Assembly (NCBI GenBank): GCA_965203485.1
Contig: OZ241892.1
Location: 2,912,001 to 2,976,000 of the forward strand
Source: Longimicrobiales bacterium
Lineage (GTDB): Bacteria; Gemmatimonadota; Gemmatimonadetes; Longimicrobiales; Gaopeijiaceae
Length of the DNA stretch: 64,000 bases
Direction: 5' to 3'
Shown here: one piece after another, positions 2,821 through 62,300 of the stretch
Numbering within the stretch: position 1 is the stretch's first letter
Layout of the letters: the number at the start of each line of letters is the position of its first letter
Made by a program: the position numbers and the translations under genes
Notes under the pieces: generated by a model
Told to the model about the DNA's origin: nothing
The model's input: the letters and a program-made list of their open reading frames with translations, nothing else
The model's database searches: none

Positions 2821-2835
2821 GATCCCTCGGATGCC

Positions 2836-37916: not shown

Positions 37917-39245
37917 GGACGGCGCTCGCAAACATGGCCGTGCCGCTGCAGGCATGCCGCACCGGCTCGGACGACATCCTCGTCCTTCCCGAGCGCCGAA
38001 CGCCATCCGCGGGGCCAGCGCGCCCATGCGCTCGGCGATTGGGCCGCGGCGTCCCCGCAGGTACTCGTCCTGCTCAATGAACGTGGTCATGGGGTTTCGT
38101 CCATGATTCGCAAGTTGGAGGTCCACCGTTTTAAGCGGTTTCGAGAGGCGACGTTCAAACTCGACGACCATCTTGTAGTCGTAGGACCGAACAACTGCGG
38201 CAAGACCACGTTGTTGCAGGCGATTGCGTTGTGGGCGGAAGCGTGGCATCATTGGAGACAAGACGATGATGCGTCCGGTTGGTTGCAAAGTTATAGTGGT
38301 TCAGACGTGCGTACGGCACAGGGCAACTATGTCGCAGCATCCCTTGCGACCATTCATTCGGTCGCCGTTACCGATTTTTCCCATCTTTGGCACGGCAAGG
38401 ACGTGAATGAGCCCATTGTCTTGGTCATGCATACAAGCAAATGGACGATCGGGCTTGAACTGCATTTTGAAACCAGTAGCACGATAGCCGTTCGGCCAGC
38501 TGACGATGTTGACGCACGCGAACTGCGAGCTTGCGGGTCCGCGCCGTTTGCCGTCCTCTCCATTCCATCGACGCTGCGCGTCGAGGAAAAGGAATCCGTA
38601 TTTGAGGAAGATGTGTTGAAGGCTCGCTTGTCGAGAGGCCGTGGCGGCAGTGTCTTGAGGAACATCTTGTTGCGCATATCGGAATCGGAAGACAAGTGGA
38701 GCAAGTTGGCGAACGAGATTCACGCTCTGTTCGGCTATCGGCTTCTTTCGCCCAGCAGGGGCGAACCGCTCAGTGTCTTCTACCGACATTCGGACGAGCA
38801 CAACCGGCTCGAGATCGCTTGCGCCGGCAGCGGCTTTCTTCAAGCTCTGCTACTGAATGCAAGCTTGCTGTACGGCGAACCGCAAGTCGTCGTAATCGAC
38901 GAACCCGACATGCATTTGCACAGGCTGTTGCAGACGGAGATCTATGGTCGACTATCCAGATTGCAGGGTAGCCAACTGATCGCATCCAGTCACTCCGACG
39001 TACTGGTCGACGACGCCGAGCTAGATCACCTGCGATCGCTGACGGCTACCGGTCTTGTTCGAGTGAAGCACGTTCCTCACGCCAAGAATGCCTTGCGATT
39101 GCTGACAAACAGCCAGATTCATACCGCTGTCGCGATCGAACGCATACTGTATGTGGAAGGCAAGACGGACATTCCGATTTTGAGAGCGTGGGCGAAAACG
39201 ATAGATCACCCAATGTCGTCGTTTCTGGCAAAGCCGTTTTCGCTA

Positions 39246-40102
39246 GAACCTATCTCAAAAGGCCGAGATGGTTGAAGAAGATGCAGATGGCGGACAGTTG
39301 GACGAACGCCAGGAAGTTCTCGGGATGATATTCCCAACGGACCAACAGCCGGCGCTTCCACTGCATCCACCCGAAGAACCGCTCGACAATCCATCGTCGC
39401 TTCGCCCGCCGAAGCCGACGACCGTCCTGCGTCCGCGGCCGCGTTCGATTGCGCCGGTGCGGCGCGATCATCTCGATGCCTCGCGCACGCAAGGCCGCGT
39501 CCAGCGGGTCGCTGTCGTACGCCTTGTCGCCGATCAAGTTTGCCGGCGTGTCGTCCGTGAACGCCAAGTCCAGCGACAACTGGACGAGCGTCGCCTCGTG
39601 AGGATTCGCAGGATGCGTGCTCAACGACAGCGGAAGACCGCAACGGTCCACGACCGCCATGATCTTCACGCCCTTGCCCGCCTTGGTGTTTCCCACGCCC
39701 GCCCCGCCTCCCTTCGCCCGCGCGAACGACGCGTCCACGTATGCCTCCGTGCCGTCGAAGAGACCCCGTTGCCTCGCTTCCCCCGCCAAGTCCCTCAGCA
39801 CCCGTTCGAGCACGCCCGTCCGGACCCAAGTCTGGAACCTCCGGTGCACGGTCTTGTAGTTCGGATAGTGTTGCGGCAGAAAGCTACACTGGGCGCCCGT
39901 GTGCAGAATCCACAGCACAGCTTCGAACACGCGCCGGGCGGGCACCGGCGGCCGCCCCAGCCGCTTCCCCTTTTGCGCTTCCTCGGGAAAGTGGTGGCGA
40001 ATCCGCTCCCACTGCTCGTCGCTCAGCTTCATCGTCGTCATACCTCGAAGATAAACAACTCCCCGACCCATCGCAACCCATCATGCTTTTTGAGATAGGC
40101 TC
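39246..40102 (-). mobile_element. IS5-family insertion sequence, 857 bp, TA target duplication
   Basis: 15-bp terminal inverted repeats GAACCTATCTCAAAA (39246-39260) and TTTTGAGATAGGCTC (40088-40102), one mismatch. TA at 39244-39245 and 40103-40104. Confidence 0.93.
39250..40041 (-). CDS. IS5-family DDE transposase (263 aa, single frame)
   Basis: LSDEQWERI, VHRRFQTW, YVDASF, IGDKAYDS, RWIVERFFGW. The stop codon lies inside the terminal repeat. Confidence 0.93.
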   Translation of the reverse strand: MTTMKLSDEQWERIRHHFPEEAQKGKRLGRPPVPARRVFEAVLWILHTGAQCSFLPQHYPNYKTVHRRFQTWVRTGVLERVLRDLAGEARQRGLFDGTEAYVDASFARAKGGGAGVGNTKAGKGVKIMAVVDRCGLPLSLSTHPANPHEATLVQLSLDLAFTDDTPANLIGDKAYDSDPLDAALRARGIEMIAPHRRNRTRPRTQDGRRLRRAKRRWIVERFFGWMQWKRRLLVRWEYHPENFLAFVQLSAICIFFNHLGLLR

Positions 40103-40753
40103 TATTCACGTCCGGACAAGAAAAGGGATTTGCGTCAAAGCATTATAATGCGATCAGAACGTTGGTGCCGTCCTGTCGAAGCATTGAATTGCGTGACAGG
40201 AATCGTCGAAACGTCGGGGATGACGTCGATGGCAGTAGCAAAGAGAAGCCACGGACGCCTATTAGGATCTACTGGCGTCGGTACGAGATCGAGAATTACC
40301 TGCTTCATCCAGACGCCATAATTCGGTTTGTGGACAAATGCGGATCCGATGAGACGAAAGCGCGTGCCGATCAACACATGAAGAAGCACTGGCCGCCCGT
40401 GTTGCTGGGCGATCCGTTTTCGGACAGCCCGCTGCACGAGACCAAGGGCAAGGACATCCTTTCCAAGCTGATGGAGGATGTCGGGCTCCCCTGGAGCCAC
40501 AAGGACTGCGTGGAGATCGCGGAAGAGATGAAGGCGGACGAAGTGCATCCGGAGGTACGCCAAAAACTGGACCGGATTGCCGAGGAGTTGGAGCTAGCGC
40601 CGACCATCGGATAAGGCGAAGAGGCAAGGCGACTACGGGACGGGCCGCTAAAGTCGGCGGCCTAGCAGAATGCGCAACTACCGGGAGCGCGACTTGGTTC
40701 GTTCTTACATTTGGCTGTAGCGCGCGCCACGACGGCGATCCACCTTGACGGTC

Positions 40754-43377: not shown

Positions 43378-46002
43378 TCAGTTGCCGAACCCCTGCCTCC
43401 ACATATGCCCCTGCAACCGCTGCTTCGCATAGCCGGCCAGCGGCTCCAGCAGATCGGTCGCCAAGGCGGTCGCCGATGCCTCGCCTCCCAGGGGATTCAG
43501 GTCGTCCAAGAAGAACGCGGCGGCAAAGCCCAGCGTCGTCCCGCCGACTTCCGTTCCGCCGTCGTCCAAGAGGTGGACCGGGGGAACTCCCAGCACGCCC
43601 GCGCGCAGGCCGGGCGCGGTGGGGCAGGCCGATATCCACGCGCCGTGGCGGCGGGATGCCGACCGGCCGGCCTCCGGGGGAACGACCAGCACGCCCAGGA
43701 CCAGCGCCGATCCCTCGCGGACAACGGGACCCGCGCGCAACGGCACGGACACGGCGGGCGTGCCCGTCTTGGCGAACACGAAAACCTCGTAGTCCTCGGC
43801 GCCGGGAACGGACCGGACCGCCGACTCGAACCGGCGGACGGCCGACGCCAGACGCGCCGCGGTGCCGCCGGGGCGGGCGACCAGCTCCATGGCGTGCAGC
43901 ACGCGCCGCCGCGCACCAGGATGAAGGACGTCCTCCGGCAAGGGCTCGGTCGCGCCGCCGCGGCGCGGCCCGCCGGGACTGGTCACCAAGCGGCCCCGCA
44001 CGTCCCGGCCCGTCATGAGGCGCGACATGGCCTCGGCCAGCTGGAAGTTGCTCCAGCGGGAGTTCTCGCCGCCCAAGAGCAGGTTCACCCAGTCCTGGCG
44101 CAGCTCCTCGATGGTGTTCAACGCCAAGTTCGTGACCTGGGGCGACACGGCGGAGAAGCGCAACGCGGTGTGCACCGGGTTCGTCGTGTCTCCGGCCGCG
44201 GCCAGCTCGCCCAGGGGGCCGCGCCAGAGGTCCAGCCGGTACCGGTGCGCGCGGTAGGCGGGTTCGACTTCGCCGGAGACCCGTCCGCCGGGTGACGGAT
44301 CGCGGTAGACGGCGGCGCCGGTCAGGCGTTCGAGCGGGAGGGCCGGAGCGAACTGGTCGCCGAGCAGGCGGAGATCGGAGCAGGTCTCGCCAGTGAACGG
44401 CAGGTCGTCCGCGAGGGCCAGCTCGACGACTTGGTCGCAGAAGCGGACCCGCCGGGCGCCCGCGAAGCCGGACGAGACAAGGGCGTCCCGCGGCGGGGCG
44501 GGCGACGAGGCGGCGACTTCCGGTCCGGGCAGGCCCGCCAAGCAACGGGCCATCGAAGCGCCTTCGCCCAGGCACTCGGCGGCGGCGGCGCCCGCGGCGG
44601 CTCCGGTCAGCAACGCGGCGGTGGCCGCTTCGACCATGTAGCGGTTGCACGACGTGCGCAGGAACGTCTCCAGCCCTTCCCATTCGCCGTGTCCCCTGGA
44701 TCTGTACGGCACGGGCAGGGCACACCCGAACACGGCGTGCACTTCGCCGGACGGATGGGCGGGAATCTCGAGGTCCAGCAACCCCGGGAAGGCCGTCGCG
44801 GCCGCCGCCGCCCAAAACGGCTTGAGGGCCGAACCTCCGGGGTGAAGGGTCAAGTTCTGGTTGCGCAGGTAGCGGGACCGGAGGCGGCGGGAGAGCTGGC
44901 CGTAGTCGTCCAGCACGGGCTCGCCTGGGCAGGTGGGCATGGCCAGCACGTCCCCCCGGAATGCATCCATGAAGAGCGCCGAGACCGCCCGCGGCCGGCC
45001 GGGCAGCCGTTGCCGCTCGCACCACCGGTCCACCGTCGCCTGGGTCGCGGCCTCCAGCCCGCGGTCCAGCGCCAAGCGAATCTCCAGGCGCGACACGGGC
45101 CCGCCGTCCCGCGCCGAAGGAGTCGACTGAAGGCCGCCCGTCATGGCCTGAGCCAAGTCGCTCACGAACGGCGACAAGTGCGGCACCAAGTACCGGCGCG
45201 GCGCTCCGTCCGCCGACGCTCCCGTCGACACCAGCCCGGCGCGGTCCGATCCGTCCACCAAGTAGGTGAAGACGTCGTCCCGGTGCTCCATCTGCACCCA
45301 GTCTCCCGTCTCCAGCCGCACGATTCGTCCGGGCGGCACGGCCAAGCCGTTCAGGCGCAGCTCCGACGGAGCGCCCACGTCTCGGCGGTCCGCGAGCACG
45401 GGGGCGTCGCCCGCGAAGAACGCCTCGGCCAGCACTTCGGGGCTGCGCGGCGCCTCGAAGCGAAGAAACTCCGTGCGAACCGAGATGTCGCGCCGGGCCA
45501 AGCCCACCCGCGCGTTGCTGCTCGCGTCCAGGCTCTCGAACGGATGAACCACGTGCAGGCGCTGGTCCCGCCCGCCCCGAAAGCCGGCGCTCCGGCCCGC
45601 GCGAGCGAATCGCACCGCGCCCGTCCACCGAGGCACGCGGTTGTAGGGCAGGTCCACCCGATGGTAGAACGGGTCCACGCCCAGAAGTCGGCAACCGTCC
45701 ACCAAGAACGGCGAGCGCGCGGCCGAAGGGTCCGCGTTGAAGCGGCGAACGTCCGCCTGGAGGTAGCTGGACCGAAAGAAGCGTTCGTCCGGATCGCCGG
45801 GCGCCAGGCGAACGGCGATGGAGTCGCGCTCTTCGCAAAGCAGCTCGAGGCCGCCCCTCTCGACGACGGCGTTGGCCCGGGTCACGAAGCCCTCCGGCGC
45901 CCAGTAGCCGGCCGGGGGCTCCTGGACGGCCGCATGCACGATCAAGACGGGCACAAGGGCGGCGGCCGCCCAGGCGCCGCGGGCCACGGTTCGGATGGTC
46001 AC
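43378..46002 (-). CDS. Membrane-anchored penicillin-binding transpeptidase-like protein (~874 aa) with an FHA-like N-terminal region
   Basis: N-terminal TM; GDVLAM, GSALKPF (SxxK), SCN (SxN), AKTGT (KTG); LNG...LETGDWVQM resembles FHA C-terminal strands. GTG overlaps the upstream stop. Confidence 0.78.
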   Translation of the reverse strand: MTIRTVARGAWAAAALVPVLIVHAAVQEPPAGYWAPEGFVTRANAVVERGGLELLCEERDSIAVRLAPGDPDERFFRSSYLQADVRRFNADPSAARSPFLVDGCRLLGVDPFYHRVDLPYNRVPRWTGAVRFARAGRSAGFRGGRDQRLHVVHPFESLDASSNARVGLARRDISVRTEFLRFEAPRSPEVLAEAFFAGDAPVLADRRDVGAPSELRLNGLAVPPGRIVRLETGDWVQMEHRDDVFTYLVDGSDRAGLVSTGASADGAPRRYLVPHLSPFVSDLAQAMTGGLQSTPSARDGGPVSRLEIRLALDRGLEAATQATVDRWCERQRLPGRPRAVSALFMDAFRGDVLAMPTCPGEPVLDDYGQLSRRLRSRYLRNQNLTLHPGGSALKPFWAAAAATAFPGLLDLEIPAHPSGEVHAVFGCALPVPYRSRGHGEWEGLETFLRTSCNRYMVEAATAALLTGAAAGAAAAECLGEGASMARCLAGLPGPEVAASSPAPPRDALVSSGFAGARRVRFCDQVVELALADDLPFTGETCSDLRLLGDQFAPALPLERLTGAAVYRDPSPGGRVSGEVEPAYRAHRYRLDLWRGPLGELAAAGDTTNPVHTALRFSAVSPQVTNLALNTIEELRQDWVNLLLGGENSRWSNFQLAEAMSRLMTGRDVRGRLVTSPGGPRRGGATEPLPEDVLHPGARRRVLHAMELVARPGGTAARLASAVRRFESAVRSVPGAEDYEVFVFAKTGTPAVSVPLRAGPVVREGSALVLGVLVVPPEAGRSASRRHGAWISACPTAPGLRAGVLGVPPVHLLDDGGTEVGGTTLGFAAAFFLDDLNPLGGEASATALATDLLEPLAGYAKQRLQGHMWRQGFGN

Positions 46003-49000
46003 TCGCGCCTCGCGAGCGGAGGCGTCGTCAGGGGCGGGGAGCTCGCCGGGGGCTCGAGGCGCGAGGACGGAGCGGCCGGACGCAAGGCGGCCACGGCGGG
46101 CACGGCAGGGACGGCCTTCGCTTGCGCGCGCCCGCGCTCGGACCAGCCGAGCGCTCCCGCGGCCAAGCCCAGCAGGAAGAGAGCCTCCAGCGTGTCGCCC
46201 AGCGAGTCGAGGCCGAGCAAGTAGACGTTCTTGCCCGTGAACATCACCAAGCCGTAGTTGGCCAGAATCATGTAGGCGCCCGCCGTCGAGAAGGTCAAGA
46301 GAGCCGTCGCGGCCAGCATCCGCTCGGGGCGCGACCAGCTGTTGATCGGGTTGCGGCGGCCCGCGTGGGGCGGCGTGTCTCGCTGGCCAACGTCGTCGCC
46401 CGGCGCCCGTCTTTGCGCGCCATGGGCGGAGAAACGAAAGCGGCTCGCCGGCAGGACTGGAACTAGGGCGGCCGCGAGCAGCGCCAGGAGGCCCAGCGTG
46501 CCAGGCGCTCCCCACTGGCTGGCAAGCAAGCCCGTGACCACGTGCTCGCGCGTTGCGGTCGTGCGTATTTGCGGCGACACGCGCCCTTCCAAGAAGCCCT
46601 GCCCCGACCAGTTGCCTCGCGTGTAGGAACGCATGGTCTCGCGCATCACCGCAAGGGCCTCGCTGCGGCTTTCGCCGATGAGCCCGAGAGCCTCGGGGTC
46701 GCCCCGCTCCAGCAGAAGCAAGTCGTTGCGGCTCCACTCCTCCAAGCCCGACCTGGGGCCCTCGAGGTCGGGCAAGAACGGGCGGGCCAGCGCGGGTGCC
46801 GCCTGGAGCAACGCGAACAACAGCAACGGAAGCGCACCCAGGAGCGCGAACCCTGTTCCAGTCCCTCCCCTTCGCTCCGTCCGCCGAGCGTACGCCATTG
46901 CGGCGAGCGCCAGGACGACGAGAGGGCCGGGAAGCGTCGTGAACATGATGCCGAAGTCGGAGATCCGCCAGCTCGTCGCGGCGTAGGCAAACGTCAGATA
47001 TGCGCACAGGTCGAGCAGCGCGACGGCGGCCCGCCCCCGACGGGTGGACGGTCGAGCAACTGGTCGTGCGGTTCCTTGGCGGCCGCCAGAGGCGTCGGAA
47101 TCGGTCCCCGTGATTCGTCGGTATTGCCGTGCCGCCAGGATGGCGAAGACGGTCAGCGCGAGCGGCGTGAAGATCACGGAGAGGCCGATGCGGGTGCCGC
47201 CGATGGGCATCTGCTCCCGAAAGCCGAACGCGTCCAGCAAGAGACGGAGCAAGAGGATCGCAACGCCCCACGCGATCCCCGGACAACTGCTTGCCGGTCT
47301 CCGCAACAAGGCCGTGCTCCCCAGCACGTGGCCCAGCTTGCCGGCGAGGGCGCGCGCGGTTTTCGGCAGAGGAGCCCCGGCAATCCTCCGGCAAGCCGCA
47401 ACTGTCCTGCCGCAAGTCGCCGCCAGCCGGAGACCCAGCTTGCGCCACCGCCGCGCGTCGAGCCACGCGGGCCACAGCGCCGACAACATCGCGGGCGCTG
47501 CCACGACCACCACCCCGGCGGCCAGCACGAACTGCTTGGCACGACTCGCCGGGAAGAGGGCGACGGCCAGGACGACCAGCACGCCTCCCAGAGCCAAGGT
47601 GGCGACGATCGAACGGTCCCATGCCCGCGGAAGCGCAATGCCGCTCCAAACCGATGTCGCTGCCGAATCAGGCGCCCGTTGCTCCGTCGAACCAGCGCCG
47701 TCCCCGGCCATGGCGTCCACCGGCGGAGGCAGCGCCCCGGGGCGCGCCGCAAGCGTTCGGCCGGCGGCCGTCCGGCCCAGAACACATGCGAACCACGGCA
47801 ACGCCGGGATCAGCCAAAGGCCGATTTGGTGACCTTCGTCCACGAAGGGATAGCGCACCATGGCCGAGACGGAGAGCAACGCCCGCAACGCCGCCAGACC
47901 CAGCGCCGCAAAGGCCACGGCTCGCACCGCGGCGGTCGTCCCGATGAACGCGAATGGCGCCGCGGCCGCAACAAAGAGCAGGGCAAGCAACAGCATGAAT
48001 CCGCCCGACGCCGCGAAGCCGTCCACTCGCACCAGCAGTCCTCTCTGCCCGTCGCTCAGCGTGAACGGGCGTCCGGTCCGCCAGCTGGCTTGCCCGGAAG
48101 GCGCCAGCAACTCGAACCAGCCGGTTGCCGGGCCCTCGGGAAGGCGAAGCACAGCCTGGCCGGCGGCGGCGAACCCGTTGGACGGCGAAGAAAAGGTCAG
48201 CCCGGCGGACACCGCGGACCCGTCTCCGGCGGCCAGCCTGACCGCGTGAAGCCGCACGTCGCCCTCGAGGCCGGTCGCGAAAGTGGAGGGAAGTATCCTG
48301 GCGGGAGGCAACCCCGCGACTTCAATGTCGTGCACCTCCGTCCGAGCGCCTCGAACCGTGACCCAATCGCCGTCCGCGACGACGCGAAACGTCCGAAGCG
48401 GCCGCGCCCCGTAGCGCTCCCCGGCGGCCAGCCTGGAATCGGGAAAATCCCTGTGCGGCAACCCCGCCACCGTCACCGAGCGCTGTCCGTCCGTCCGCGT
48501 CCATGCGGGCGCCGCGCCGATCGGAACCTTGGCGGTCCCGTCGGCCGAAAACGCTTCGACTTCGGCGTCCAGGACTGCCAAGCGGGCGGCGCCCTCGTCG
48601 TCGTAGTAGAGGAAGGACCGCAACCGGTCCAGCGATTGGTCGTTCGGGCCCATGGCGGCCGCCAGGTCGGCCAGCGGGTACGTGCGTTGGTAGATGCCGG
48701 GGCGGGACGGCAGAAGGCCCATGGTTCCCGCGCCGTCCGGGTACGGCAAGACCGCGACCGCAGGCTCGTTGGCGTTCGAGGGGATTGGCGGCCCGCCATG
48801 CTGCCGATCGCGCGGGCGCCCTTCGGCCTGACCTTCGGCGCCCGCCGCCGCCGCGCCTGTGTTCGCGTCCACTAGGCCCTCGCGATCCGCACTGCTCACG
48901 CGCGCGAGTTCGTCCCGGGCCGTGGCCGAAGTCGCCGCGCGCTCGGTCGAGCCGGGGTGCGCAACGCGCACATGCAACAACTCGTCCCGGGCGCCCGCCA

Positions 49001-49547
49001 AGCGCACCCTTTGCAGAAGCGAAGCTCTCGACCGCGCGAACTCGAAGAGCTCGGCGGAACCAACGCGAATTCGGTCGCCGGGTTCCACGGACACGGAGCC
49101 CAGCACGATCCGGTCGCGGCCCCTCCAACCTGCGGACGTGGTCACGACCACGACGGCGCTTGCTCCCGCGCTGCTCGGCGCGACCACCATGATGCTGTCC
49201 GGCCGCGCGGCCCCGTCTGCGCGCGATGCTTCGTTCGCAGGCGCGCTCCGCGCCGACCTCGCCACCAAGACGGCCGCAGTGTCGCTGCCCGCGCCCGGCA
49301 CGTGATAGTCGGCTCGGTTCCTGTCGCCCGACACCACTGCGACGACGCTGTCGGCGTCCGGCTGAAAGCGTTGGCCGAGCAATCTGACCTGGTACGACGC
49401 CAGGCGGTCGCGCGCAAACCATATCTGTCCGCACGCGAGGAGACCGACGAGAAGGGCGAAGACGGCCGTGTGACGGTCCGAAGTCCTTCGGTGCGCAGTC
49501 CACCACGATCCGACCAGGACCGCAAGCCCCAAGAGGAGAACCGTCAC
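45999..49547 (-). CDS. Large divergent SEDS (FtsW/RodA-like) membrane protein with a long soluble N-terminal region (~1182 aa)
   Basis: C-terminal multi-TM region with SDFG, GNWSGQGFLEG, QWGAPG, ANYGLVMFTGKNVYLLG. Directly upstream of a PBP. GTG start at 49547. Confidence 0.7.
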   Translation of the reverse strand: MTVLLLGLAVLVGSWWTAHRRTSDRHTAVFALLVGLLACGQIWFARDRLASYQVRLLGQRFQPDADSVVAVVSGDRNRADYHVPGAGSDTAAVLVARSARSAPANEASRADGAARPDSIMVVAPSSAGASAVVVVTTSAGWRGRDRIVLGSVSVEPGDRIRVGSAELFEFARSRASLLQRVRLAGARDELLHVRVAHPGSTERAATSATARDELARVSSADREGLVDANTGAAAAGAEGQAEGRPRDRQHGGPPIPSNANEPAVAVLPYPDGAGTMGLLPSRPGIYQRTYPLADLAAAMGPNDQSLDRLRSFLYYDDEGAARLAVLDAEVEAFSADGTAKVPIGAAPAWTRTDGQRSVTVAGLPHRDFPDSRLAAGERYGARPLRTFRVVADGDWVTVRGARTEVHDIEVAGLPPARILPSTFATGLEGDVRLHAVRLAAGDGSAVSAGLTFSSPSNGFAAAGQAVLRLPEGPATGWFELLAPSGQASWRTGRPFTLSDGQRGLLVRVDGFAASGGFMLLLALLFVAAAAPFAFIGTTAAVRAVAFAALGLAALRALLSVSAMVRYPFVDEGHQIGLWLIPALPWFACVLGRTAAGRTLAARPGALPPPVDAMAGDGAGSTEQRAPDSAATSVWSGIALPRAWDRSIVATLALGGVLVVLAVALFPASRAKQFVLAAGVVVVAAPAMLSALWPAWLDARRWRKLGLRLAATCGRTVAACRRIAGAPLPKTARALAGKLGHVLGSTALLRRPASSCPGIAWGVAILLLRLLLDAFGFREQMPIGGTRIGLSVIFTPLALTVFAILAARQYRRITGTDSDASGGRQGTARPVARPSTRRGRAAVALLDLCAYLTFAYAATSWRISDFGIMFTTLPGPLVVLALAAMAYARRTERRGGTGTGFALLGALPLLLFALLQAAPALARPFLPDLEGPRSGLEEWSRNDLLLLERGDPEALGLIGESRSEALAVMRETMRSYTRGNWSGQGFLEGRVSPQIRTTATREHVVTGLLASQWGAPGTLGLLALLAAALVPVLPASRFRFSAHGAQRRAPGDDVGQRDTPPHAGRRNPINSWSRPERMLAATALLTFSTAGAYMILANYGLVMFTGKNVYLLGLDSLGDTLEALFLLGLAAGALGWSERGRAQAKAVPAVPAVAALRPAAPSSRLEPPASSPPLTTPPLARRE

Positions 49548-51547
49548 AGGTCTGGGCGGCCGCCGGGTCCCAGACTCCTTTTCCTCTCGGCCAGTTCGTC
49601 CGCATAGAAGTCGGTTCGCGTCACCAGCACGAACCGCCACCAGTTCACGAAGAGAAGCACAGTCAGGACCAGTCCGGCGAGCGTGAGCACAGCGACTGCG
49701 GCGACGGTGGCGCTCGGCCGGTTTCGGGCGTGGTGCCGAAGCAGCTCCGTCCGTCCGCTTCCCGGTGCGCGCATCAGGGGCGCCAAGTCCTCTGCGCGGT
49801 ACAGGGCGGACGGACGCAGTCCCGCGTGCGAGACGGCGGCCTCGAGCGTCTGCACGTAGGCGGAGGCGTCCCTCGAGCGGATGCGGCTCGACGCGTCGCC
49901 GCTCCGAACCTCCTCGACCAGATGGCTGGCGACGTCGTGGAAGACGGCTCTCCGCCACTGCGGCACGAAGTCGCAGGCCGCTTCGGCATCGATGCCGGCG
50001 TTCAGCTCCGGCGGGATCCCGCCTCTGCAGAATGCGCGAGCGTGGGCTCGAGCCCGGTCAAGAATGTCGGCGGCCGCGGCGGCTTCCAGTCCGTCTTCCA
50101 GCTGCCGGCGCCATCCGTCGTAGCGTGCAACGAGCCCAGCGTGCACCAACTCTCCCGCCAGGTCCAGCAGGCCCCCCTTCATCTCGTCGCTCAGGGGCTC
50201 GTCCGGCACGTCGGGACACTGGGCGGCCTCCAAGCGCGCGAAGGCATGCACGGCCACAGCCGCCCAAGCGCTGTCGGCGCGCGTCGGCCGGGCCTGCCGC
50301 ACGATCAAGTCCGGGCCGTCCCGGCGCAGTCCGGCAACTACCTGGGACAGCATCCCGCACTGCTTCTTCGGATCCAGGTCCAGCGCCTCCATCCAAGCCG
50401 GTTCGTCCAGCACGCGCAACGTGAGGACGGTCCTGCCGGCGGCCAGCGCGGGGTCGGGATTCAAGCGGTTGTAGTGATAGACCCTCTGCAGGTTGGAGGC
50501 CGCCCACACGATGTTTTCGGGAATCGGGCTGCCAGAGGGCAGGCCTCGGCCTTGCGCATGCTCGAGAAGACGCGCGAGCGGGTCGCCGGCGTTCATCTCG
50601 CCGTTTCCGCGGGCGACCTCCTCGGCAAGCTCAAGCTTGTCCGGGCGGCTCAATTCGCCGGAGTCCGCCGCCATGTAGGCCGCGACCAGCCCGGCGTAGG
50701 CGTCCAACGAAGTCAGGCTGCGTTGCGCGCTGGACGGGCAGGACAGCTCTTCCGGCAGAATTTCGATTCGATTGTAGTGGCCGCCCCGCGCGAAGCCGCG
50801 AGAGCTGGGCATGTAGTAGTTGACCGCGTTGAGAGCATGGCGGAAGTGTTCGACGGCCTCTACGGCGCGTCCGCGAAATCGAGCCGCCACGCCGGCCAGG
50901 TAGCGGCTGTGGAATACCAGGATCACGACGGCGCGCTGCGCATCCCGGGAGCGGGTCGCTCGAAGCGCTTGGGGCGCGGGGACTATGGGCAGCAGGTCGC
51001 CCGCCTCGGCTTCGACGTCCTTCAGGTGGTTCGCGGCCCCGGCCCAGTCTCCGCCGGCGCCGAGCGCACGGGCCACGGCGTAGCGAGCCACGCGCTCTTC
51101 GGTCCCCGACAGACTTTCGATTTCGTTCTCGATCGTCTCGACGGCCTCTTGAAGTCTGTCGCGGTTGCCGTTCGCCGCGGCGCTCTCGGCCTGCCCAATC
51201 GCGCGGTCCAGCGCTGGCCGCGTTCTCATGTCGCTCGTCAAGCCGGCCGTGCACAGGAAAGGGGGCAGGGAGGGTACGAGCAGGTCCTCCACGCGCCGGT
51301 CGCTGCGGCTGGTGAGCACCGCGAAGCGCCAGGACTCGCTCAGCGTTCGGCCGAGACGAACGGGCTCGCGCGAGAACTGGCGTGCGCGCGCCAGCGTGAT
51401 CTCGGGCGCGGCGGAGCCGAGCAGAACGTTGCCCATCCACACTCCTCCGGCGACAACCGCGAAGCAGCCAAGGACCAGCAGAGCCCTTGCCTTCCATCCA
51501 GGCGCAACCCGGCCGGCGCCGATGCCGGCGAGCGTCGTCCGTTTCAC
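49544..51547 (-). CDS. Helical TPR-like protein with N- and C-terminal TM segments (~667 aa)
   Basis: RYLAGVAARFRGRAVEAVEHFRHAL-type repeats and hydrophobic termini. GTGA overlaps at both ends. Confidence 0.65.
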   Translation of the reverse strand: MKRTTLAGIGAGRVAPGWKARALLVLGCFAVVAGGVWMGNVLLGSAAPEITLARARQFSREPVRLGRTLSESWRFAVLTSRSDRRVEDLLVPSLPPFLCTAGLTSDMRTRPALDRAIGQAESAAANGNRDRLQEAVETIENEIESLSGTEERVARYAVARALGAGGDWAGAANHLKDVEAEAGDLLPIVPAPQALRATRSRDAQRAVVILVFHSRYLAGVAARFRGRAVEAVEHFRHALNAVNYYMPSSRGFARGGHYNRIEILPEELSCPSSAQRSLTSLDAYAGLVAAYMAADSGELSRPDKLELAEEVARGNGEMNAGDPLARLLEHAQGRGLPSGSPIPENIVWAASNLQRVYHYNRLNPDPALAAGRTVLTLRVLDEPAWMEALDLDPKKQCGMLSQVVAGLRRDGPDLIVRQARPTRADSAWAAVAVHAFARLEAAQCPDVPDEPLSDEMKGGLLDLAGELVHAGLVARYDGWRRQLEDGLEAAAAADILDRARAHARAFCRGGIPPELNAGIDAEAACDFVPQWRRAVFHDVASHLVEEVRSGDASSRIRSRDASAYVQTLEAAVSHAGLRPSALYRAEDLAPLMRAPGSGRTELLRHHARNRPSATVAAVAVLTLAGLVLTVLLFVNWWRFVLVTRTDFYADELAERKRSLGPGGRPDL

Positions 51548-52782
51548 GCGGAGTCCTGCCGTTCCATGCGTCGGACGAGGCGATCCAGCCACATGGCCGA
51601 AGCCGAAGACAAGCCGGGGACGGCCCAAGGGTGGCGAGCCAAGAAGTCAATCACGCCCTCGCCGCCCACCAGCGATTCCGTGCCGCGCTGCGCGTCGTCC
51701 TCGGCGTCCTCGGCGTCGGCGTCGGGACTGGAATCTTCCAGCGCCTGGCAGAACGACCACTTGAAATGCCGCACGCCTTTGTGCAAGTAGTCCCGGAAGC
51801 CGCGGAAATACTCGGCGGCCTGCAACGGATGCGTCTTGCCGGGGACCAACCGACGAACGGGCGGGCCTCCGTTGCGGCCAGGACTGGGCGTGCGAAGGCC
51901 GGCACGGTCGCGCTTGTACAGATCAGCCTTGGAAAGCACCACTGCAACCGGCCGATCGTACTTGCGACTTCGGCCGGAAAGCCCGTCCACCTCTTCGTGG
52001 TTGGGAGCTGTCTCCATCTCCGGATGCTCGCGAGCCGCCCGCGCGTACTTCAGCAACGTAATGTGAGCGTCCACCATGCGGTCTTCGGCATCCTGGATTC
52101 TCTCGACCTCCGCAGGCGTCAACTCTTGTCGGTCGCGGTCGTTCCAGCCGGACCAAACCATGGGAAGAGCCATCAGAAGCGCCATCCCGTCCAGCCGTTG
52201 GAGCAAGGGCCAAAGGAATGCATTCATGATTTCCGGCAACGGCTCCCCGGCCTCGCCCAGGATCTGAAAGTCTTCGCCAGCCATGTCCAGCAAGACGTTC
52301 CGCTCGCCCGTCTTGCCCGGCAAGACGTAGATGTTGACTTGTCCGGTCTCGGTCTTGTCGTAATAGGTCACGTCGATGCGCATGCGTTCGGCATGACGCT
52401 GATACAGGCGCTTGACCAGCGTGGACTTGCCGTGACGCGGGAGCCCTGCGACGCAGAACAGCTTGCCGTCGTTCCTGTCTTGGTGTTTCTCGAGTTCGCT
52501 CAGTTGCTTCTCGAGAACGGATTCTTCGGAGACGTGAAACGTCGTGCTTTGAAGTCTCCCTACCCTGAACTGCGGACGTTTGCCCGGCGCCGAAGACTCC
52601 GGTCCGGCGGCGGGCCAGCACCGGCTGGGATCCTCTTCGGCGCCGGGGGCCGCGTCCGGCGCTTCCACGCCCGGCTTTCGCTTGAACGTCCGCTTGAACC
52701 GGTCCGCGTAGCGCTCGACAATGGGCCTTACGGTCTCGTCGCCGACGCTCTCGCCGATCTTGTCGGATCGATTCCCGTTCAT
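51544..52782 (-). CDS. TRAFAC-class GTPase (DO-GTPase-like)
   Basis: G1 GLPRHGKST, G2 KTETG, G3 DMAGE, G4 LSKAD. Confidence 0.78.
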   Translation of the reverse strand: MNGNRSDKIGESVGDETVRPIVERYADRFKRTFKRKPGVEAPDAAPGAEEDPSRCWPAAGPESSAPGKRPQFRVGRLQSTTFHVSEESVLEKQLSELEKHQDRNDGKLFCVAGLPRHGKSTLVKRLYQRHAERMRIDVTYYDKTETGQVNIYVLPGKTGERNVLLDMAGEDFQILGEAGEPLPEIMNAFLWPLLQRLDGMALLMALPMVWSGWNDRDRQELTPAEVERIQDAEDRMVDAHITLLKYARAAREHPEMETAPNHEEVDGLSGRSRKYDRPVAVVLSKADLYKRDRAGLRTPSPGRNGGPPVRRLVPGKTHPLQAAEYFRGFRDYLHKGVRHFKWSFCQALEDSSPDADAEDAEDDAQRGTESLVGGEGVIDFLARHPWAVPGLSSASAMWLDRLVRRMERQDSA

Positions 52783-52816
52783 GCGCGAATCCTGTCGTCG
52801 AACCGGGAAGGCTTTC

Positions 52817-54790
52817 TCACGCGCGCCGGCCGGCAAGCGCGGACATCAGGCCCAGGAAGACCGAGAGCGGCGGCCTGCGCGCGGGTTCCACGAGCCGACG
52901 GGCCAAGTCGGCGGCGCCGGGGACCCCCTTCGCCGCCAAGGCCGCCAAGGACATGTCGCCGCGTGCGCGTCGCTCGGCCCACGCCAGGCGCTGCAGCACG
53001 CCCAAGCCTTGCTCGTCCGGACCGGCGTCCGCGGCCTCGGAAGCGACCACGCCGAGCCAAGCACGTTCCAACAGAGGCCGCCATGCGGAAGACGCGCGCT
53101 CGGCCAAGCCCAGGAACGCCGCGACAAGTTCGCTGGCCAGACCGGGGGCGATCGGATCCTGCACGCGCGCGACGTCCACCATTTCGGGGACTTCGGCTTC
53201 TCGGCCAGCAACCCGGAGAAGCGCGACGAGCATGCTCGCCAGCTCCGCGACCACCGCCTCGCCGTCCAGTTCCCGCGTTCGCCGGACAGCCCTCCCGAGT
53301 TCGCCCACGTCCGCCCCCGCCTGCACCAGAGCCCGCAGTCCCTCGACCAGCAATGCGAGTCCGTGGCCACGGTGCTCGGCGCCCGTGCCCGCCACCGCCG
53401 CCAGTCGGCCCGCCTCGCGCCCGGCGACCCAGCCGCAGCTTCCCCGGGCCAAACCGTCGAAGAAGCGAGGATTCGCTCCCAGCATGGCGTTGCCGGAGAC
53501 GGCCTTCGCCCACTCCGGCCACTGGCCCGCCGGCCGCGCGGCCAAGTCCGCAGCCGCCAGTCGGCCGAGTCCGCGCCACCGCTTCGCACCAGCGGCCTCC
53601 ATGCGCGCGCGCGCGAAGATGTCGACCCGTCCGGGGCGGGACGGTTCCCACTGGACGAAGTAGGGAAGGCACTCGGGCCGGAAGAGGGACATGCTCCGCA
53701 GGTCGATTCTCGCGCTGACGCGGGCATGGTCCGCCGGCATCTCGAGTACGAGCGTCGCCCAGCGCCTAACGGGATCCAGCTCTGTCGCCGGAGCCTCGCG
53801 GACGGCGGAATCGGCGGCCCTGCCGGGCTCGATGCGGATGCCGGAGTCGGTGGCCTTGCCGACGTTGGCTCCCTTGCGGGAGTCGGCGGCCAACGGAACG
53901 AGGCAGGGTGTCGGACGTCGCCCGCGGACGTCGAGCATCGAATAGAAGACCCGGGCGCGGTCGGCCAAAGGCAGGGACAGCCAAGCCAGCCGCAGGAGCG
54001 CGTCGGCGTCGGGCGCGTCGGCCGTCGGCGACAACGGGCCAACCGGGATGACTCCGGCCGCCTTGGCCGCGCGGCTGTCCGCGTCCTCGCGCGGCATGTC
54101 GCCGCGACGCCGGCCAAGCACGTCGCCCATCGCCCGGTACACGGCGCACAGCGCTTCCTTCGCGGCCCGAGTCCCCGCCCCGGCAACCGCGGCCCGCAAC
54201 CGGTCCAGTTCGCAAAGCCGCGCTCGCCGGAACCGCTCCGTGCCGTGGGGGCGCTCCGGCGGCGGCAGCGGCGACGGCTCCACCGGCGCGGAGCCGCGGA
54301 GTTCGGCGAACCAAGCCGCCTCGGATGCGATCGGAAGCGCCGAGAGGTCCATGTGCAGGCCCTGCGGGAATCCGTCGATCTCTCGGAAGAGCCCCTCGTC
54401 GAACAGTAGCGTGTGCGTTGCGATGCGAGCCCGCCGCGCGCGCGGCTCGCCGGAACGCGGGCGCACGACTCCCGACAAGCAAAACCCGAGTCGGCCGTCC
54501 AATGGAAGGAACGATTCCGGCAGTCCGAATGTCCCGTGAACGGGGTCGTTCACCGCCGGACGGACGCCGCCGCCGTGGACCAGGACGGGCGGGTCGGCGG
54601 AGTCGGCCAGTTCGGTTCCCCAGGGGACGCGTTCCTCCAATCGCCTCGCTCGAGTGCGATCCAGGCCCTCGGTCCAGCCGTAGGTCTCCCATGCCAAGTT
54701 GTACGGAGACGCGTTGCTCGCGAACAGGTGGCGGTCAAGGCGGCGATGCGACGACGGGCGGCCGTCCGCATCCGGGCGATCGGCCGTCAA
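52817..54790 (-). CDS. Hypothetical protein, possible GAP1-N-type N-terminal domain (657 aa)
   Basis: Coupled by a TTGA overlap to the upstream gene and adjacent to the GTPase. HLFAS...WETYGWTEGL...RIATHTLLF loosely resembles GAP1-N. Confidence 0.55.
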   Translation of the reverse strand: MTADRPDADGRPSSHRRLDRHLFASNASPYNLAWETYGWTEGLDRTRARRLEERVPWGTELADSADPPVLVHGGGVRPAVNDPVHGTFGLPESFLPLDGRLGFCLSGVVRPRSGEPRARRARIATHTLLFDEGLFREIDGFPQGLHMDLSALPIASEAAWFAELRGSAPVEPSPLPPPERPHGTERFRRARLCELDRLRAAVAGAGTRAAKEALCAVYRAMGDVLGRRRGDMPREDADSRAAKAAGVIPVGPLSPTADAPDADALLRLAWLSLPLADRARVFYSMLDVRGRRPTPCLVPLAADSRKGANVGKATDSGIRIEPGRAADSAVREAPATELDPVRRWATLVLEMPADHARVSARIDLRSMSLFRPECLPYFVQWEPSRPGRVDIFARARMEAAGAKRWRGLGRLAAADLAARPAGQWPEWAKAVSGNAMLGANPRFFDGLARGSCGWVAGREAGRLAAVAGTGAEHRGHGLALLVEGLRALVQAGADVGELGRAVRRTRELDGEAVVAELASMLVALLRVAGREAEVPEMVDVARVQDPIAPGLASELVAAFLGLAERASSAWRPLLERAWLGVVASEAADAGPDEQGLGVLQRLAWAERRARGDMSLAALAAKGVPGAADLARRLVEPARRPPLSVFLGLMSALAGRRA

Positions 54791-55476
54791 GGGACAGCTT
54801 CCGCGGAGATTTCGAGGTCCAAGATGTCCAGGTCGATGTCCGGTGTCGTGTCCGTCGGCGCGTCCGTCGGCGTCCCGTCGGACTGGGCGTCCAGCGCGTC
54901 TCCGTTGCGCCTCGGGGGCCGGGCCGTCGTGTCCGAACGGGTCAACGTGTCCTCCGGCCGGGCCGTAGTGTCCGCCGGAACGCCCGGCACGTTGCCCGGA
55001 CCGGCCGCGTCAAGCCACGGATCCACCAAGTCTCTGCCGACCCAGCCCACGCCCAGAAGCGCCACTGCAAGCAGGCTCCACGCCAAGTGGCGGCCACCCA
55101 GGCCATGCCGTTCCCGCTTGTCCGCGGGCTCGCCGGCGGCCTTCGGGCCAGTGCGCGGCGGATCGTCCTCTCTCCCGGGCACGACCGACGCCACGGACGC
55201 GACCACTCCGGCCGTCCTCTCCGTCTCTTCTCTAACGACTCGCCGCACCGATGCCATCCAGGCGTCCCCGGAAGCCGCGCTCGCTCCCTCCTCGCGAACG
55301 ACTCGCCGCACGATCGCTTCCAAGTCGACCGCTGGCGGGACTGCCGTTCCAATCGCTTCGGCAACGGCTCGTCCGGCTTCTTCCCGGACCGTGTCCAACG
55401 CCCTGCGCAACAGCTCGGTCAGTTGCCGCTCGCGTTCGTACATTTCCTGCTCATGATTCCGCTCGGACTTGCTCAC
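54787..55476 (-). CDS. Single-TM protein with a coiled-coil N-terminus and acidic Pro/Thr-rich tail
   Basis: VRRVVREE repeated twice, TM AWSLLAVALLGVGWVG, 4-nt overlaps on both sides. Confidence 0.65.
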   Translation of the reverse strand: MSKSERNHEQEMYERERQLTELLRRALDTVREEAGRAVAEAIGTAVPPAVDLEAIVRRVVREEGASAASGDAWMASVRRVVREETERTAGVVASVASVVPGREDDPPRTGPKAAGEPADKRERHGLGGRHLAWSLLAVALLGVGWVGRDLVDPWLDAAGPGNVPGVPADTTARPEDTLTRSDTTARPPRRNGDALDAQSDGTPTDAPTDTTPDIDLDILDLEISAEAVP

Positions 55477-55874
55477 GGATCAAGTCGCTCGGGCGAGAGG
55501 ACGAAGGAAAAAGACCATCCCTCGGACAACAGGGCATCCAAATCCGCAACGCCTAGTTGCTCGCGGAGCGCGGCGCGGGCCGACAGGTTGTTTTCCAAGT
55601 GGTAGAGGCGCAACACGGCGCGGGCGGTCATCGTCCAAGGCACAGCGATCGTCGTTGTGTCCCTGCCGGCCAGGAATTCGGCGGTCAAGCGGGATGCGTC
55701 GTCGAACGAGACCTGAGATCCGACTGGGCTGGTCTCGGTCGTGACCATGGCAAGCCGACGCAACCTCGGACCCGTTGCGGTGCCCACGAAGAACAGACAC
55801 GCAACGATGGCCGCCACAACAATGGCCGCCGCCAAGACACGACATAGCGCGATCAACCGCTCGGACTTGTTCAT
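55473..55874 (-). CDS. Small membrane-anchored protein with a possible LysM-like domain
   Basis: GAAGGA RBS and N-terminal TM. IAVPWTMTARAVLRLYHL...LREQLGVADLDALLSEGWSF follows LysM spacing. Confidence 0.6.
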   Translation of the reverse strand: MNKSERLIALCRVLAAAIVVAAIVACLFFVGTATGPRLRRLAMVTTETSPVGSQVSFDDASRLTAEFLAGRDTTTIAVPWTMTARAVLRLYHLENNLSARAALREQLGVADLDALLSEGWSFSFVLSPERLDP

Positions 55875-55978
55875 TACGTCCTTCGTTCACGGCTCCGTCG
55901 TGCGATTTGCCCGACAATGTAACGTCTGGCCGCGACGAAGGGCCTGGCGCGCATCCTTGGCGCATCCCCACGCCGGAC

Positions 55979-56314
55979 CTACGGCTTGACGCCCTGCTGG
56001 GTGTGCTCCTCCACCCACTCCTGGTACGTCCGGCCCATTTCGGCTTCCTCCTTGAGTTGAATGATCCGCGCCGCATCCGCTCCGGCGCCTTCGCCGCCCG
56101 CACCCGCTCCGCTGTTCATTCCGCCAACGCCCGGCGCACGGGCCAACCGCTCGACACCGCCCCAGCGCCTGGCGATGCGGCCGTGCACCTCCGGGCAGCT
56201 CGCCCAAGCATCCCTCTCCAGCGCCGCCAGCCATCCCACCAACCCGTCTTGCGGCAACTCTTGCGACGAAGCCCGCTGCGAGTCAAGCCGGCGGCGTGCG
56301 TGCACCGTCCCCAA
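55979..56314 (-). pseudogene. Degenerate Rpn-family C-terminal remnant
   Basis: LAALER..., IIQLKEEAEMGRTYQEWVEEHTQQGVK, with AAGGAGG before the ATG at 56038. Frames are broken. Confidence 0.5.
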
Positions 56315-59338: not shown

Positions 59339-62300
59339 TTACCTGAGCTGGATGGCGCCTGCTAGGCCGAGGCGGCGTTGCGGGGGTTCGAGCGGCGAGG
59401 AGGCGTGCTCGCCGTAGAGGTGGAGGAGGAAGCGCAGGCTCTCGGCGGCGGGCGAGTGCGTGCCCGTGCCGGACTGGGTGGACTGGCCGAGCAGCGAGAA
59501 GCGCGCGCCGGCGTTGAAGCGGCGGCCGGCGCCGGCGTCTTGGCTCCAGCGTCCGAACGGCGTGATCGTGGCGCCGTTGTCGAGCGCGACGCCCCAGCCC
59601 AGCTCCATGGCCATGCGCCCGGGCGCCCAGCCGGACGGCGCGGCCTGGTGCGCAACCGGGTGTGCCGCCTGGGCGGCGGGGCCGAGCGCGGCGGGGCCTT
59701 CTTGCCAGAGCGCGCCCGTGGCGCCGGTGGCGGCGCCCCATGTCGGCTCGACGGAGAGCGACAGGCCGGTCTCGGCGCCGCCGCCGGGCTGGAGCCGGAG
59801 CGAGACGCCGGCGCCCCATTCGCGCAGCCCCTCGGCCTGGTGCGCGAGCAGCGCGCGCCCGCGCATCGCGACGGACAGGCCGGTGGGCGCGTGGTCGAAC
59901 GACGCTTCGCCGCCCGCCTCGGCGCCCAGCCCGGTCTCGGCGTCGCCGGCGTCGAGGCGCGCGCCGAGCTCGAGCCGCGTGCGCAACGACGCTTCGCCGC
60001 CGAGCGCCCAGGTCTTCGCGACTTCGGGCGCGAGCCGGACGCGGTGCGCGCGCGCGGTCACGCCTGCCAGGTCGGCCGCGTCGTCGGAGCGCACGCGCAC
60101 GGAGAACGCGTCGGCCTTGAGCGCGATGCCGCCCGCCAGCTCGCGGCGCGCGCCGAGCGCGCCCATCAGCATCGCGATGTCGGCGCCGAACCGGCCGCCG
60201 CCGGCCGTCTCCTCGAGCGTCGCGTCGCCGGTTCCTGCGCCTGCGAGGGCCCAGAGGCCGAGCCCGCCGGTGGGCGACCAGTGCACGTAGGGATGCACGC
60301 TGGTCAGACTCGCGGCGACGGAGCCGGCGCCGTTGACGGCGCTCTCGAACTCGGTCTCGAAGCTGCTGCGCGCGCCGGCGACGCCGACGAGCAGGCCGGA
60401 CGCGAAGCGGTAGTCGGCGCCGAGGTGCGCCGAGCGCGCGCGCCCGCCGCCGAAGCGCAGGCCGTCGGCCGGGCGGCCCTCGTAGCCGCCCATGCCCGCG
60501 CGGCCCCAGACGGTCCAGCCGGGACGCAGGCCGGCGGCGTCCTGCGCGCCGCCGCCGCCGAGCGAGAGCTGGAACGAGCTTCGCTCGAGCAGGTCGCCGC
60601 CCGACAGCGGGTTGAACGTCACGCCGCCCGGCGTGGCCGCCGCCGGCTCCTGCTGGCCCCGGTAGTCGCCGGCAACGCCGAGTCCGGTAGCGGCGCCGCC
60701 GACCGGGCCGCCGAATCCGCCTGCTCCCGCGCCCGGGCCGCCGAACAGCAGCGCGGCCGGGTCGAGCGCGCCAGCGGACGGCGCGCCGCCCAGGCCGCCG
60801 ACGCTCGGCAACGCGACTTGGACGCCGAGCAGGCCGGACGCGGCGCGCGCCAGCGCCTGCCAGCCGCACGCTCGAGCGCCCGTTTCGGCACCCGCCCCCG
60901 CCTGCGCGGCCGCCCCGGCGGCTCCAACCCGGTCCTCCGCCCGTTGCGCGAAGCCGCCGCCGCCGCAACCGACGGCGCGCCCGCCGAGCTGGAGGTGCGA
61001 GCGTCCGAGTCCGCCCGCCGATTCGATCCCGAGCCGGCCGCCGATCACGTCGACGGCCTCGGCGCCGACGGAGCGCCCGAACGCGGCCAGCGCGCCCTCG
61101 AGCACGCGCGCTCGCTCGGAGCGCGACGCCTCGACGACGACGGCGACGGTCTGCTCGGCGGCCAGCCCGCCGGGATCGGCGGCCGTCACCGTCACGCTCG
61201 CCGTGCCGATCGCGAACGGCTGGATGGTCAGCACGCCGCCCGCAACGCTCGCCGCCGCCACCGCCGTGTCCGACGACTCGGCGGCGTACGCGAGCGCGTC
61301 GCCGTCCGGGTCCCGGAAGTACGCGTCCAGCGTCTCCTGCACGGCCGCGCCGTGCGCCTCGAGCGCCGGGATCGCGATCTGCGCGGTCGCTTCGGGCGCC
61401 TCGTTGACGTCGGTCACGACGACGGTCGCGTTCGCCGTCGCCGCCAGGCCGCCCCGGTCCGTCGCGGCGACGACGAGCGCGTGCTCGCGCGGACCCGTCT
61501 CGTAGTCCTCGCCCGCGCCGACGTAGCGCACGGCGCCGCTCGCAGCGTCCAGCTCGAACAGGCCGCCGCCGTCCGAGACGAGGCTGTACGACAGCACGTC
61601 GCCCTCGTCCTCGTCGTCGGCGCCGACGGCGCCGACGGCGAGCGGGCCGGCCGCGTTCTCGGCCAGCTCGAACGTCCAGCTCGCCTGCTCGAACACGGGC
61701 GCCTCGTTCACGTCGGCGACCGTCACGACGACGGCCGCCCGCGCGGCCAAGCCGTCGGCGCCCGTCGCGGCGACGACGAGCGCGTGCTCGCGCGGGCCCG
61801 TCTCGTAGTCCTCGCCGGCGCCCACGTAGCTGACCGCGCCGCTCGACGCGTCCAGCTCGAACAGCCCACCGCCGCCCGAGACCAGGCTGTACGACAGCGC
61901 CTCGCCCTCGTCCGGGTCGGTCGCCGACACCGTGCCCAGCACGACGGGCCCGGCCGCGTTCTCGGCCAGCTCGAACGTCCAGCTCGCCTGCTCGAACACG
62001 GGCGCCTCGTCGGCGTCGGCGACGGCTATCACGACGCCGGCCGCCGCTCGCAATCCACCCGCGTCGGCGACGGCGACGGCCAGCGCGTGCTCGCGCGGGC
62101 CCGTCTCGTAGTCTTCGCCGGCGCCGACGTAGCGCACGGCGCCGCTCGCAGCGTCCAGCTCGAACAGCCCGCCGCCGCCCGAGACGAGGCTGTACGACAG
62201 CGCCTCGCCCTCGTCCGGGTCGGTCGCCGACACCGTGCCCAGCACGACTGGGCCGGCCGCGTTCTCGGCCAGCTCGAACGTCCAGCTCGCCCGCTCGAAC

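Follow-up and report, generated by a model that had tools for sequence, protein, structure and literature searches.

A run of seven closely packed minus-strand open reading frames (ORFs), designated A to G and lying in the order A-B-C-D-E-F-G, was found in a 64,000-nucleotide stretch of contig OZ241892.1 from a Longimicrobiales bacterium (the whole of which is referred to as the window) to constitute a real, conserved system joining two known kinds, namely a GTPase/GAP1-like module and a SEDS-class B penicillin-binding protein (PBP) pair, for which no description was found. Its stable core is the F-G pair, while the accompanying switch is exchangeable. The closest relatives were found in Longimicrobiales genomes, at up to 73% identity. 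An earlier reading of the same stretch made from the letters alone (the sequence-only reading) had labelled it a six-gene operon, although it too arrived at seven ORFs when the SEDS and PBP genes were counted apart; seven is the number retained here, and the individual features are as follows.

A, 55473-55874, minus strand: 133 amino acids (aa); one N-terminal transmembrane (TM) helix (residues 13-31); the outer domain is small, conserved and of unassigned fold.
B, 54787-55476, minus strand: 229 aa; likely single-pass membrane protein with a charged helical N-terminus and a low-complexity C-terminus.
C, 52817-54790, minus strand: 657 aa; GAP1-N2/GAP1-M-like predicted cytoplasmic partner of GTPase D.
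Bridging ORF, 52779-52820, minus strand: 13 codons; 4-nt overlap with the C stop and 4-nt overlap with the D start.
D, 51544-52782 (ATG at 52782), minus strand: 412 aa; predicted TRAFAC GTPase with a DxxGE Walker B motif, DO-GTPase-related.
E, 49544-51547, minus strand: 667 aa; two TM helices flanking a large, predicted periplasmic domain that is helical and weakly resembles TPR; the tail beyond the second TM helix is conserved.
F, 45999-49547, minus strand: 1182 aa; divergent SEDS glycosyltransferase-like protein; its SEDS core (about 645-1145) is preceded by a beta-rich domain predicted to be periplasmic (about 50-511).
G, 43378-46002, minus strand: 874 aa; predicted class B PBP transpeptidase anchored by an N-terminal TM helix; an outer domain at 167-221 is FHA-like but degenerate.

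The coordinates bear out the earlier statement that at five of the six junctions neighbouring genes overlap by 4 nt (GTGA four times, TTGA once), the sixth, between C and D, being a 34-nt gap spanned by the 13-codon ORF. A frameshift at this junction was considered but not favoured: the DNA of two relatives stays colinear beyond the stop of C, which an earlier stop explains more simply. The absence of mre, mur and fts genes near the operon was likewise upheld, none being matched among 40 window ORFs (a subset of the total) scanned with Pfam. Direct Pfam, PDB-sequence and PADLOC searches left A, B, C, F and G unnamed, and D gave weak P-loop matches only in Pfam; each label was therefore tested via relatives.

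Motifs, profile matches and fold matches agreed in identifying G, as had been proposed, as a class B PBP with an intact penicillin-binding active site (S391xxK394, S451xN453 and K745TG), from which transpeptidase activity is predicted. Across a 131-row alignment, S391, K394, S451, T746 and G747 were present in 131/131 rows, N453 in 128/131 and K745 in 130/131. A protein search with G returned 56 relatives, 46 of which were used to build a profile; after clustering at 50% identity, this profile recovered 740 representatives at E<=0.001, the weak tail of which may include ordinary PBPs, and 209 at E<=1e-30. Compared with solved class B PBPs, it matched 7rcw best (E 3e-14), followed by 6pl5_B (E 9e-14). 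The predicted structure (pLDDT 82.6, pTM 0.83) gave a class B PBP in every match listed by Foldseek (best E 1.2e-10), with E. coli PBP3 first and M. tuberculosis PbpA second. Residues 9-27 form the TM anchor, and there is no GT51 domain. The PBP_dimer pedestal (PF03717) was not matched in G by Pfam; the N-terminal region is instead beta-rich and partly FHA-like, residues 167-221 matching FHA with a probability of 90% and a score of 40.7, against at most 17 for 15 shuffles. FHA domains carry an SxxH motif. As the FHA-like part of G lacks this motif and is positioned after the TM anchor, it is probably a degenerate domain lying outside the membrane. Fragmented G homologues, carrying frameshifts or stops for which sequencing errors are possible, were also seen (L014:9926-12481 and L098:252-3158).

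In a tree of transpeptidase cores, the G family formed one clade apart from housekeeping PBPs (support 100/99), with long-branch warnings, and no donor was named from it. The family profile scored 80-86 bits against kinase/FHA-linked FtsW-PBP fusions and about 22-32 bits against FtsI and MrdA of this genome, labels that rest on gene position. The actinobacterial pknAB-pbpA-rodA-pstP-fha operon is a kinase/PP2C/FHA-linked RodA-PbpA module, and an origin of the G family in modules of this kind may reasonably be inferred.

The designation of 45999-49547 as a SEDS gene also withstood examination, and by profile and model F ends in a SEDS core. When residues 750-1135 were compared, by use of hhalign, with a reference profile of 31 FtsW/RodA genes of the same phylum, a score of 45.6 was obtained, while 30 block shuffles reached no more than 26.4; with distant rows added, the probability was 87.7% (E 3.5e-6). 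The motifs of F follow the SEDS order, consisting of the hairpin (779-788 in the model), an invariant DxG (864-866), GxG, the catalytic loop, WG and TG. The SEDS fold comprises ten TM helices with a periplasmic hairpin and a large catalytic loop, and the profile comparison, the modelled hairpin and the fold matches described below agree with it. The model itself was confident (pLDDT 81.9, pTM 0.84) and places a beta-rich domain at about 50-511. In a fold search, ranks 1, 2, 3 and 5 were taken by FtsW, FtsW, RodA and RodA (probability 0.85-1.00), so that four of the five best matches belong to this family. A comparison of the outer domain of F with FHA gave an equivocal score of 23.3, with shuffles reaching up to 19.7.

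Independent support for F and G as a cognate pair, of which SpoVE-SpoVD is a familiar SEDS-class B PBP example, came from gene fusions. In Acidobacteriota, 14 loci have the G relative as the C-terminal portion of a single long ORF, which spans about 1750 aa in complete cases; in 11 of the 14, a SEDS HMM matched immediately ahead of the PBP part. The genome also carries ordinary FtsW and RodA genes elsewhere on the chromosome, each beside a transpeptidase gene; F-G is thus additional to the housekeeping FtsW-FtsI and RodA-MrdA pairs.

Co-location in other genomes, on which the sequence-only reading depended, was observed in close, metagenomic and family-wide neighbourhoods. The order D-E-F-G was present in all 11 of the 14 close loci that had at least 8 kb upstream and occurs in Acidobacteriota too, and this gene order is therefore not due to chance. 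By tblastn, C was found in nine of the close loci and A in eight. Among 19 metagenome loci, F lay upstream in 11 and a D-type GTPase was present in 5, many of the others being too short. A 40-row G profile at E<=1e-20 detected the family in 17/401 genomes of the same phylum (G000 included) and in 13/301 genomes of the phylum of G206; no relative was found in the viral contigs searched. The neighbourhoods of 26 of these loci were read, four of which repeat loci of the close set, and two were set aside because they are FtsW-PBP fusions of the ordinary kind surrounded by FHA genes, L194 being the one tested for kinase and PP2C. In the 24 counted, an F-type gene lay upstream of, or was fused to, G in 22, one of which was counted from the close-locus analysis, whereas the neighbouring switch varied: a D-type GTPase in 7, another DO-type GTPase in 3, a kinase-like gene with a PP2C-LysM gene in 4 (two of which were tested with Pfam), an unclassified arrangement in 1 and no switch in 9. 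It is this near-constancy of F-G amid varying neighbours that identifies the pair as the core and the switch as exchangeable. At L109:6020-20039 and L189-L192, for example, the genes after F-G encode a TM kinase-like protein and a PP2C-LysM protein in place of the GTPase module. At L020-L033, where SEDS and PBP are fused into about 1750 aa, the genes after the fusion in those loci that were read encode a DxxGE GTPase with a zinc ribbon and a TM protein whose N-terminus is possibly GAP1-like. At L201-L208 and L210, F-G relatives were seen with no GTPase or kinase nearby, and in L203 a lipoprotein-like gene lies directly upstream.

D is, by its motifs and profile matches, a GTPase with a DxxGE motif that is related to DO-GTPases. 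The G1 to G4 motifs first noted were found in D (G1 GLPRHGKS, T144, DMAGE and SKAD), and G1, DxxGE and a G4-type motif were kept in 19/19 homologues, 8/19 of which also have an N-terminal zinc ribbon. A Walker-B Glu and a zinc ribbon are given as DO-GTPase traits in section 27 of PMC7159879. When D was compared with four DO-GTPase2 members by hhalign, a probability of 96% was obtained (E 2e-9); with the D profile, the best DO-GTPase scored 21.8 bits against 17.0 for the best other protein of its own genome, a small margin over P-loop proteins. D had no match above the PF19993 or PF19975 cut-off, and its orthologues matched DO-GTPase Pfam families below cut-off, at E 0.01-0.25. The second GTPases of sister operons did pass it (L153, 36.9 bits; L199, 29.1 bits). 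PF19993 gave no match above cut-off in 151 genomes of the same phylum; a blind search with it in 251 genomes of the phylum of G206 gave four matches, one of which (G250, L153) is the second GTPase heading the same type of operon. DO-GTPase2 proteins of 838 aa were also seen in Acidobacteriota, in operons that contain neither SEDS nor PBP genes (L151:2256-9624 and L152:5663-12989).

C is likewise GAP1-N2-like, as judged from its relatives. Atlas gave GAP1-N2 as the lead (0.87), and all 10 of the 10 best family matches were GAP1-type. The protein in the position of C at L186 scored 24.1 for GAP1-N2 against a cut-off of 24 and matched the C profile with a probability of 83% (E 9.5e-6), although it was not among the matches of the filtered genome-size search. 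Weak GAP1-M and GAP1-N2 matches were obtained for C homologues, and C itself had no Pfam match. GAP1-N1 was tried as an identity for C and rejected, there being no match to one GAP1-N1 protein. No GAP1-C or GASH component was seen, and FNIII was unmatched by Pfam in all seven proteins, although very divergent repeats could escape. D and C appear to resemble a GAP1-N2 system in working, with membership supported in part (N2 and M, via homologues). The proposed GAP1/DO-GTPase module held in its hhalign and Atlas matches and in sister-operon genes passing the cut-off, but D and C themselves fall below the Pfam cut-offs.

Homologues of A occur in operons of both phyla (L018, L188, L153 and L187) and at the kinase-type locus L109. 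The LysM-like label given to A did not survive: against a LysM profile of only seven rows, its hhalign score of 11.7 lies within the shuffle range (6.0-15.2), and neither Pfam nor Atlas gave a match. B has the same layout and position in L006, L007, L012 and L153; the single TM segment ascribed to it is below the hydropathy threshold, but a run of hydrophobic residues can be seen at about 131-147. For E, the two TM helices stood (at 23 and 615, flanking the large helical domain) while the TPR-like character is weak (Pfam E 0.093; TPR_19 E 4.9e-5 in the homologue at L094). By the positive-inside rule the large domain of E would be periplasmic and its tail cytoplasmic; within this tail, Y648 is invariant in 18/18 sequences and E651 is kept in at least 90%.

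The operon sits in a mobile, patchy neighbourhood. G was present in 3/60 relatives and not found in either congener (G001 and G002). The two flanking genes are 75 bases apart in G001 and about 580 in G002, which indicates either a gain of the cassette in this genome or its loss from the congeners, and none of the flanking genes is common to any homologous locus. Short remnants were seen at the operon insertion site (window 55900-56300) and at the empty site of G002 (L218, about 2370-2950, reverse strand); these look like possible ends of Rpn/YhgA-family transposases. An island at 10791-42450 carries genes for a GajB-like UvrD, DUF499/HmaC, a DUF1156 methylase, PDC-M28B/C, PDC-M68B (DUF2326), a helicase with DUF2290, multi-ubiquitin and Fic. 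The operon had been described as abutting this defence island, which does lie nearby, but an AAA-ATPase gene present in both congeners intervenes. Within the island, a lower-GC block at about 17300-25800, between the DUF499 and DUF1156 genes, had no match in the compared stretch of G002, in which the regions on its two sides are near each other, and is likely a nested insertion. An IS5-family transposase (39250-40071) appears to split an AAA-ATPase (OLD/AriA-like) gene into 38103-39275 and 40162-40614. Beyond the operon, window 59339-63982 encodes a 1547-aa protein in which cadherin and Ig repeats are combined with an autotransporter-like end.

We give an even chance to the proposal that the seven genes form an optional accessory peptidoglycan synthase, switched on locally by a cytoplasmic GTPase in order to reinforce or patch the wall. 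Built on the established fold, motifs, pairing, gene order and patchiness, the model is conditional in its catalysis, wiring and trigger. F-G would be kept off until an envelope cue arrives, upon which peptidoglycan would be laid locally. The outer domains of A, B, E, F and G may sense the state of the envelope, and the cue would be relayed via E to the D/C switch; a role for E as a relay between GTPase and synthase is suggested by the position of its gene between D and F in D-type operons and by its conserved tail. C would set the GTP cycle of D, F would polymerise lipid II with Glu1001 as base, and G would cross-link via Ser391. In other lineages the same role may be taken by the Ser/Thr kinase-like and PP2C-LysM proteins, the switch being interchangeable.

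Several observations weigh against this proposal. GTPase control of the synthase is deduced from gene order, and GTPase genes were detected by profiles in only 10/24 neighbourhoods, leaving 14 without one (9 without any switch and 1 unclassified among them). No fold match of F reached E<=0.001 (FtsW/RodA ranged from 1.7e-3 to 0.2), TM-scores to the targets were 0.42-0.48, and F had neither a Pfam match (PF01098 included) nor a PDB sequence match using a 12-row profile. F also carries Glu instead of Asp at the catalytic column: Glu1001 aligns to the SEDS catalytic Asp (E. coli FtsW D297 and RodA D262), which PMC8765783 and PMC10449877 describe together with other residues reported to be needed (W138, Y379, G380 and RodA P257). 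F has no recognisable ECL5 (extracellular loop 5) Tyr-Gly, ECL2 Trp or Pro before the catalytic loop. As clear counterparts of these residues are lacking, the catalytic activity of F is regarded as likely but unproven.

A more specific reading, held to be less likely than not, is that of a mobile, signal-gated machine in which a conflict-type GAP1/DO-GTPase switch would sense a breach or invader and the Glu-catalysed SEDS protein and PBP would lay a local peptidoglycan plug. A rival explanation, rated as rather improbable, is an anti-invader conflict system, in which C would sense phage or another invader, D would set the threshold and F-G would wall off the entry site. GAP1/DO-GTPase modules are predicted in PMC7159879 to be conflict systems, often near the membrane, and the patchy occurrence, the flanks not common to other loci, the adjoining island and the helicase or restriction-like genes downstream in L006, L012 and L101 all fit such a role. 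However, the operon is missing from G002 although much of the island is there (G001 has neither), and at E<=1e-18 PADLOC matched 6/10 downstream flanks against 4/12 evenly spaced 10-kb controls, or 4/10 against 3/12 without generic ABC ATPases, the test being made on 35 downstream ORFs chosen by length with controls from this one genome. Adjacency is therefore poor evidence for defence, and the hint first taken from the island is not sustained. Furthermore, none of the seven operon proteins matched PADLOC, hypervariability is not seen in F and G, which are conserved, and the GC content of the operon (0.70) is like that of the genome (0.69) and unlike that of the island (0.62).

An altered or lost chemistry of F, acting on another lipid-linked glycan or binding lipid II unpolymerised, with G alone serving as a wall-editing peptidase or sensor, is considered unlikely. 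It would account for the Asp-to-Glu exchange (61/74 rows), the rewired ECL2 and ECL5 motifs, the large additional beta-rich domain and the low structural scores; against it, the catalytic column is acidic in 74/74 rows, with Asp in the other 13 (fused proteins among them), DxG is invariant, and an intact transpeptidase partner is nearly universal. Least probable of all is a developmental or morphogenetic synthase (for budding, contact structures or resting cells, like SpoVE-SpoVD) whose GTPase would mark the cell site, since, although PMC12516126 ties extra SEDS-class B PBP pairs beside Ser/Thr kinases and phosphatases to morphogenesis and the G profile scores kinase/FHA-linked FtsW-PBP fusions above the genome's own FtsI and MrdA, the failure to find it in the two congeners searched and in 57/60 relatives weighs against a cell-cycle role, which would be expected to track lineages.

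Control of the known SEDS-class B PBP pairs lies with the divisome, the Rod complex or kinases. If the accessory-synthase proposal is true, a portable pair with a GTPase switch of its own would be a new control of wall synthesis and the first concrete, assayable output for GAP1/DO-GTPase modules, which have so far been predicted only. The family is sizeable, as the 209 representatives attest, yet is missed by Pfam and so goes unnoticed when wall synthases are surveyed by domain. A SEDS protein in which Glu naturally replaces Asp also offers a direct test of the proposed catalytic mechanism. Were the plug reading correct, the cassette would represent defence or repair achieved by an effector that makes wall, and the databases would be overlooking an entire clade of peptidoglycan synthases whose switches can be exchanged.

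No description of a GTPase/GAP1 and SEDS-PBP combination, and hence no already characterised system matching the cluster, was found in the literature searched, most subscription journals lying outside that search. PMC7159879 (Kaur et al. 2020) was the only paper found that contains both DO-GTPase and GAP1; its main text, in the part available, has no mention of FtsW, penicillin, transglycosylase or transpeptidase, and its neighbourhood source data could list such loci.

Like FtsW-FtsI and RodA-PBP2, the pair described here consists of an adjacent or fused polytopic SEDS-like gene and a TM-anchored transpeptidase with SxxK, SxN and KTG motifs and matching folds. It differs from them in being invisible to Pfam, about twice the size and equipped with Glu at the catalytic column, in its beta-rich and FHA-like outer domains, and in lying outside dcw/mre clusters as an optional, GTPase-joined element. 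With the GAP1-N2/DO-GTPase systems portrayed in PMC7159879 it shares membrane components, an adjacent GAP1-like gene and a TRAFAC GTPase that carries the Walker-B Glu, frequently has a zinc ribbon and in sister operons is sometimes present in two copies. Unlike those systems, it has one GTPase, with the GAP1-like gene upstream, no FNIII or GASH seen, no tubulin, HSP70 or kinase theme, and a wall synthase as its cargo. Fused SEDS-class B PBPs without GTPases are described in PMC12516126. The Bosea lupini SEDS protein reported there is similarly oversized, has an outward beta-rich domain and lies beside a non-canonical (transpeptidase-only) class B PBP; it is likened to F by description only, and differs in being InterPro-detectable and in having no mention of a GTPase. 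The kinase/PP2C/FHA-linked RodA-PbpA modules (the actinobacterial ones, the Senegalimassilia fusion of PMC12516126 and L194) also place an extra SEDS-class B PBP pair under a dedicated switch, and they are echoed here by the FHA-like remnant of G, by sister loci with kinase-like and PP2C-LysM genes and by PbpA as the second fold match of G. From these modules the present system is set apart by its GTPase/GAP1 switch, by an FHA-like domain predicted to lie outside and without SxxH, and by its separate long-branch clade.

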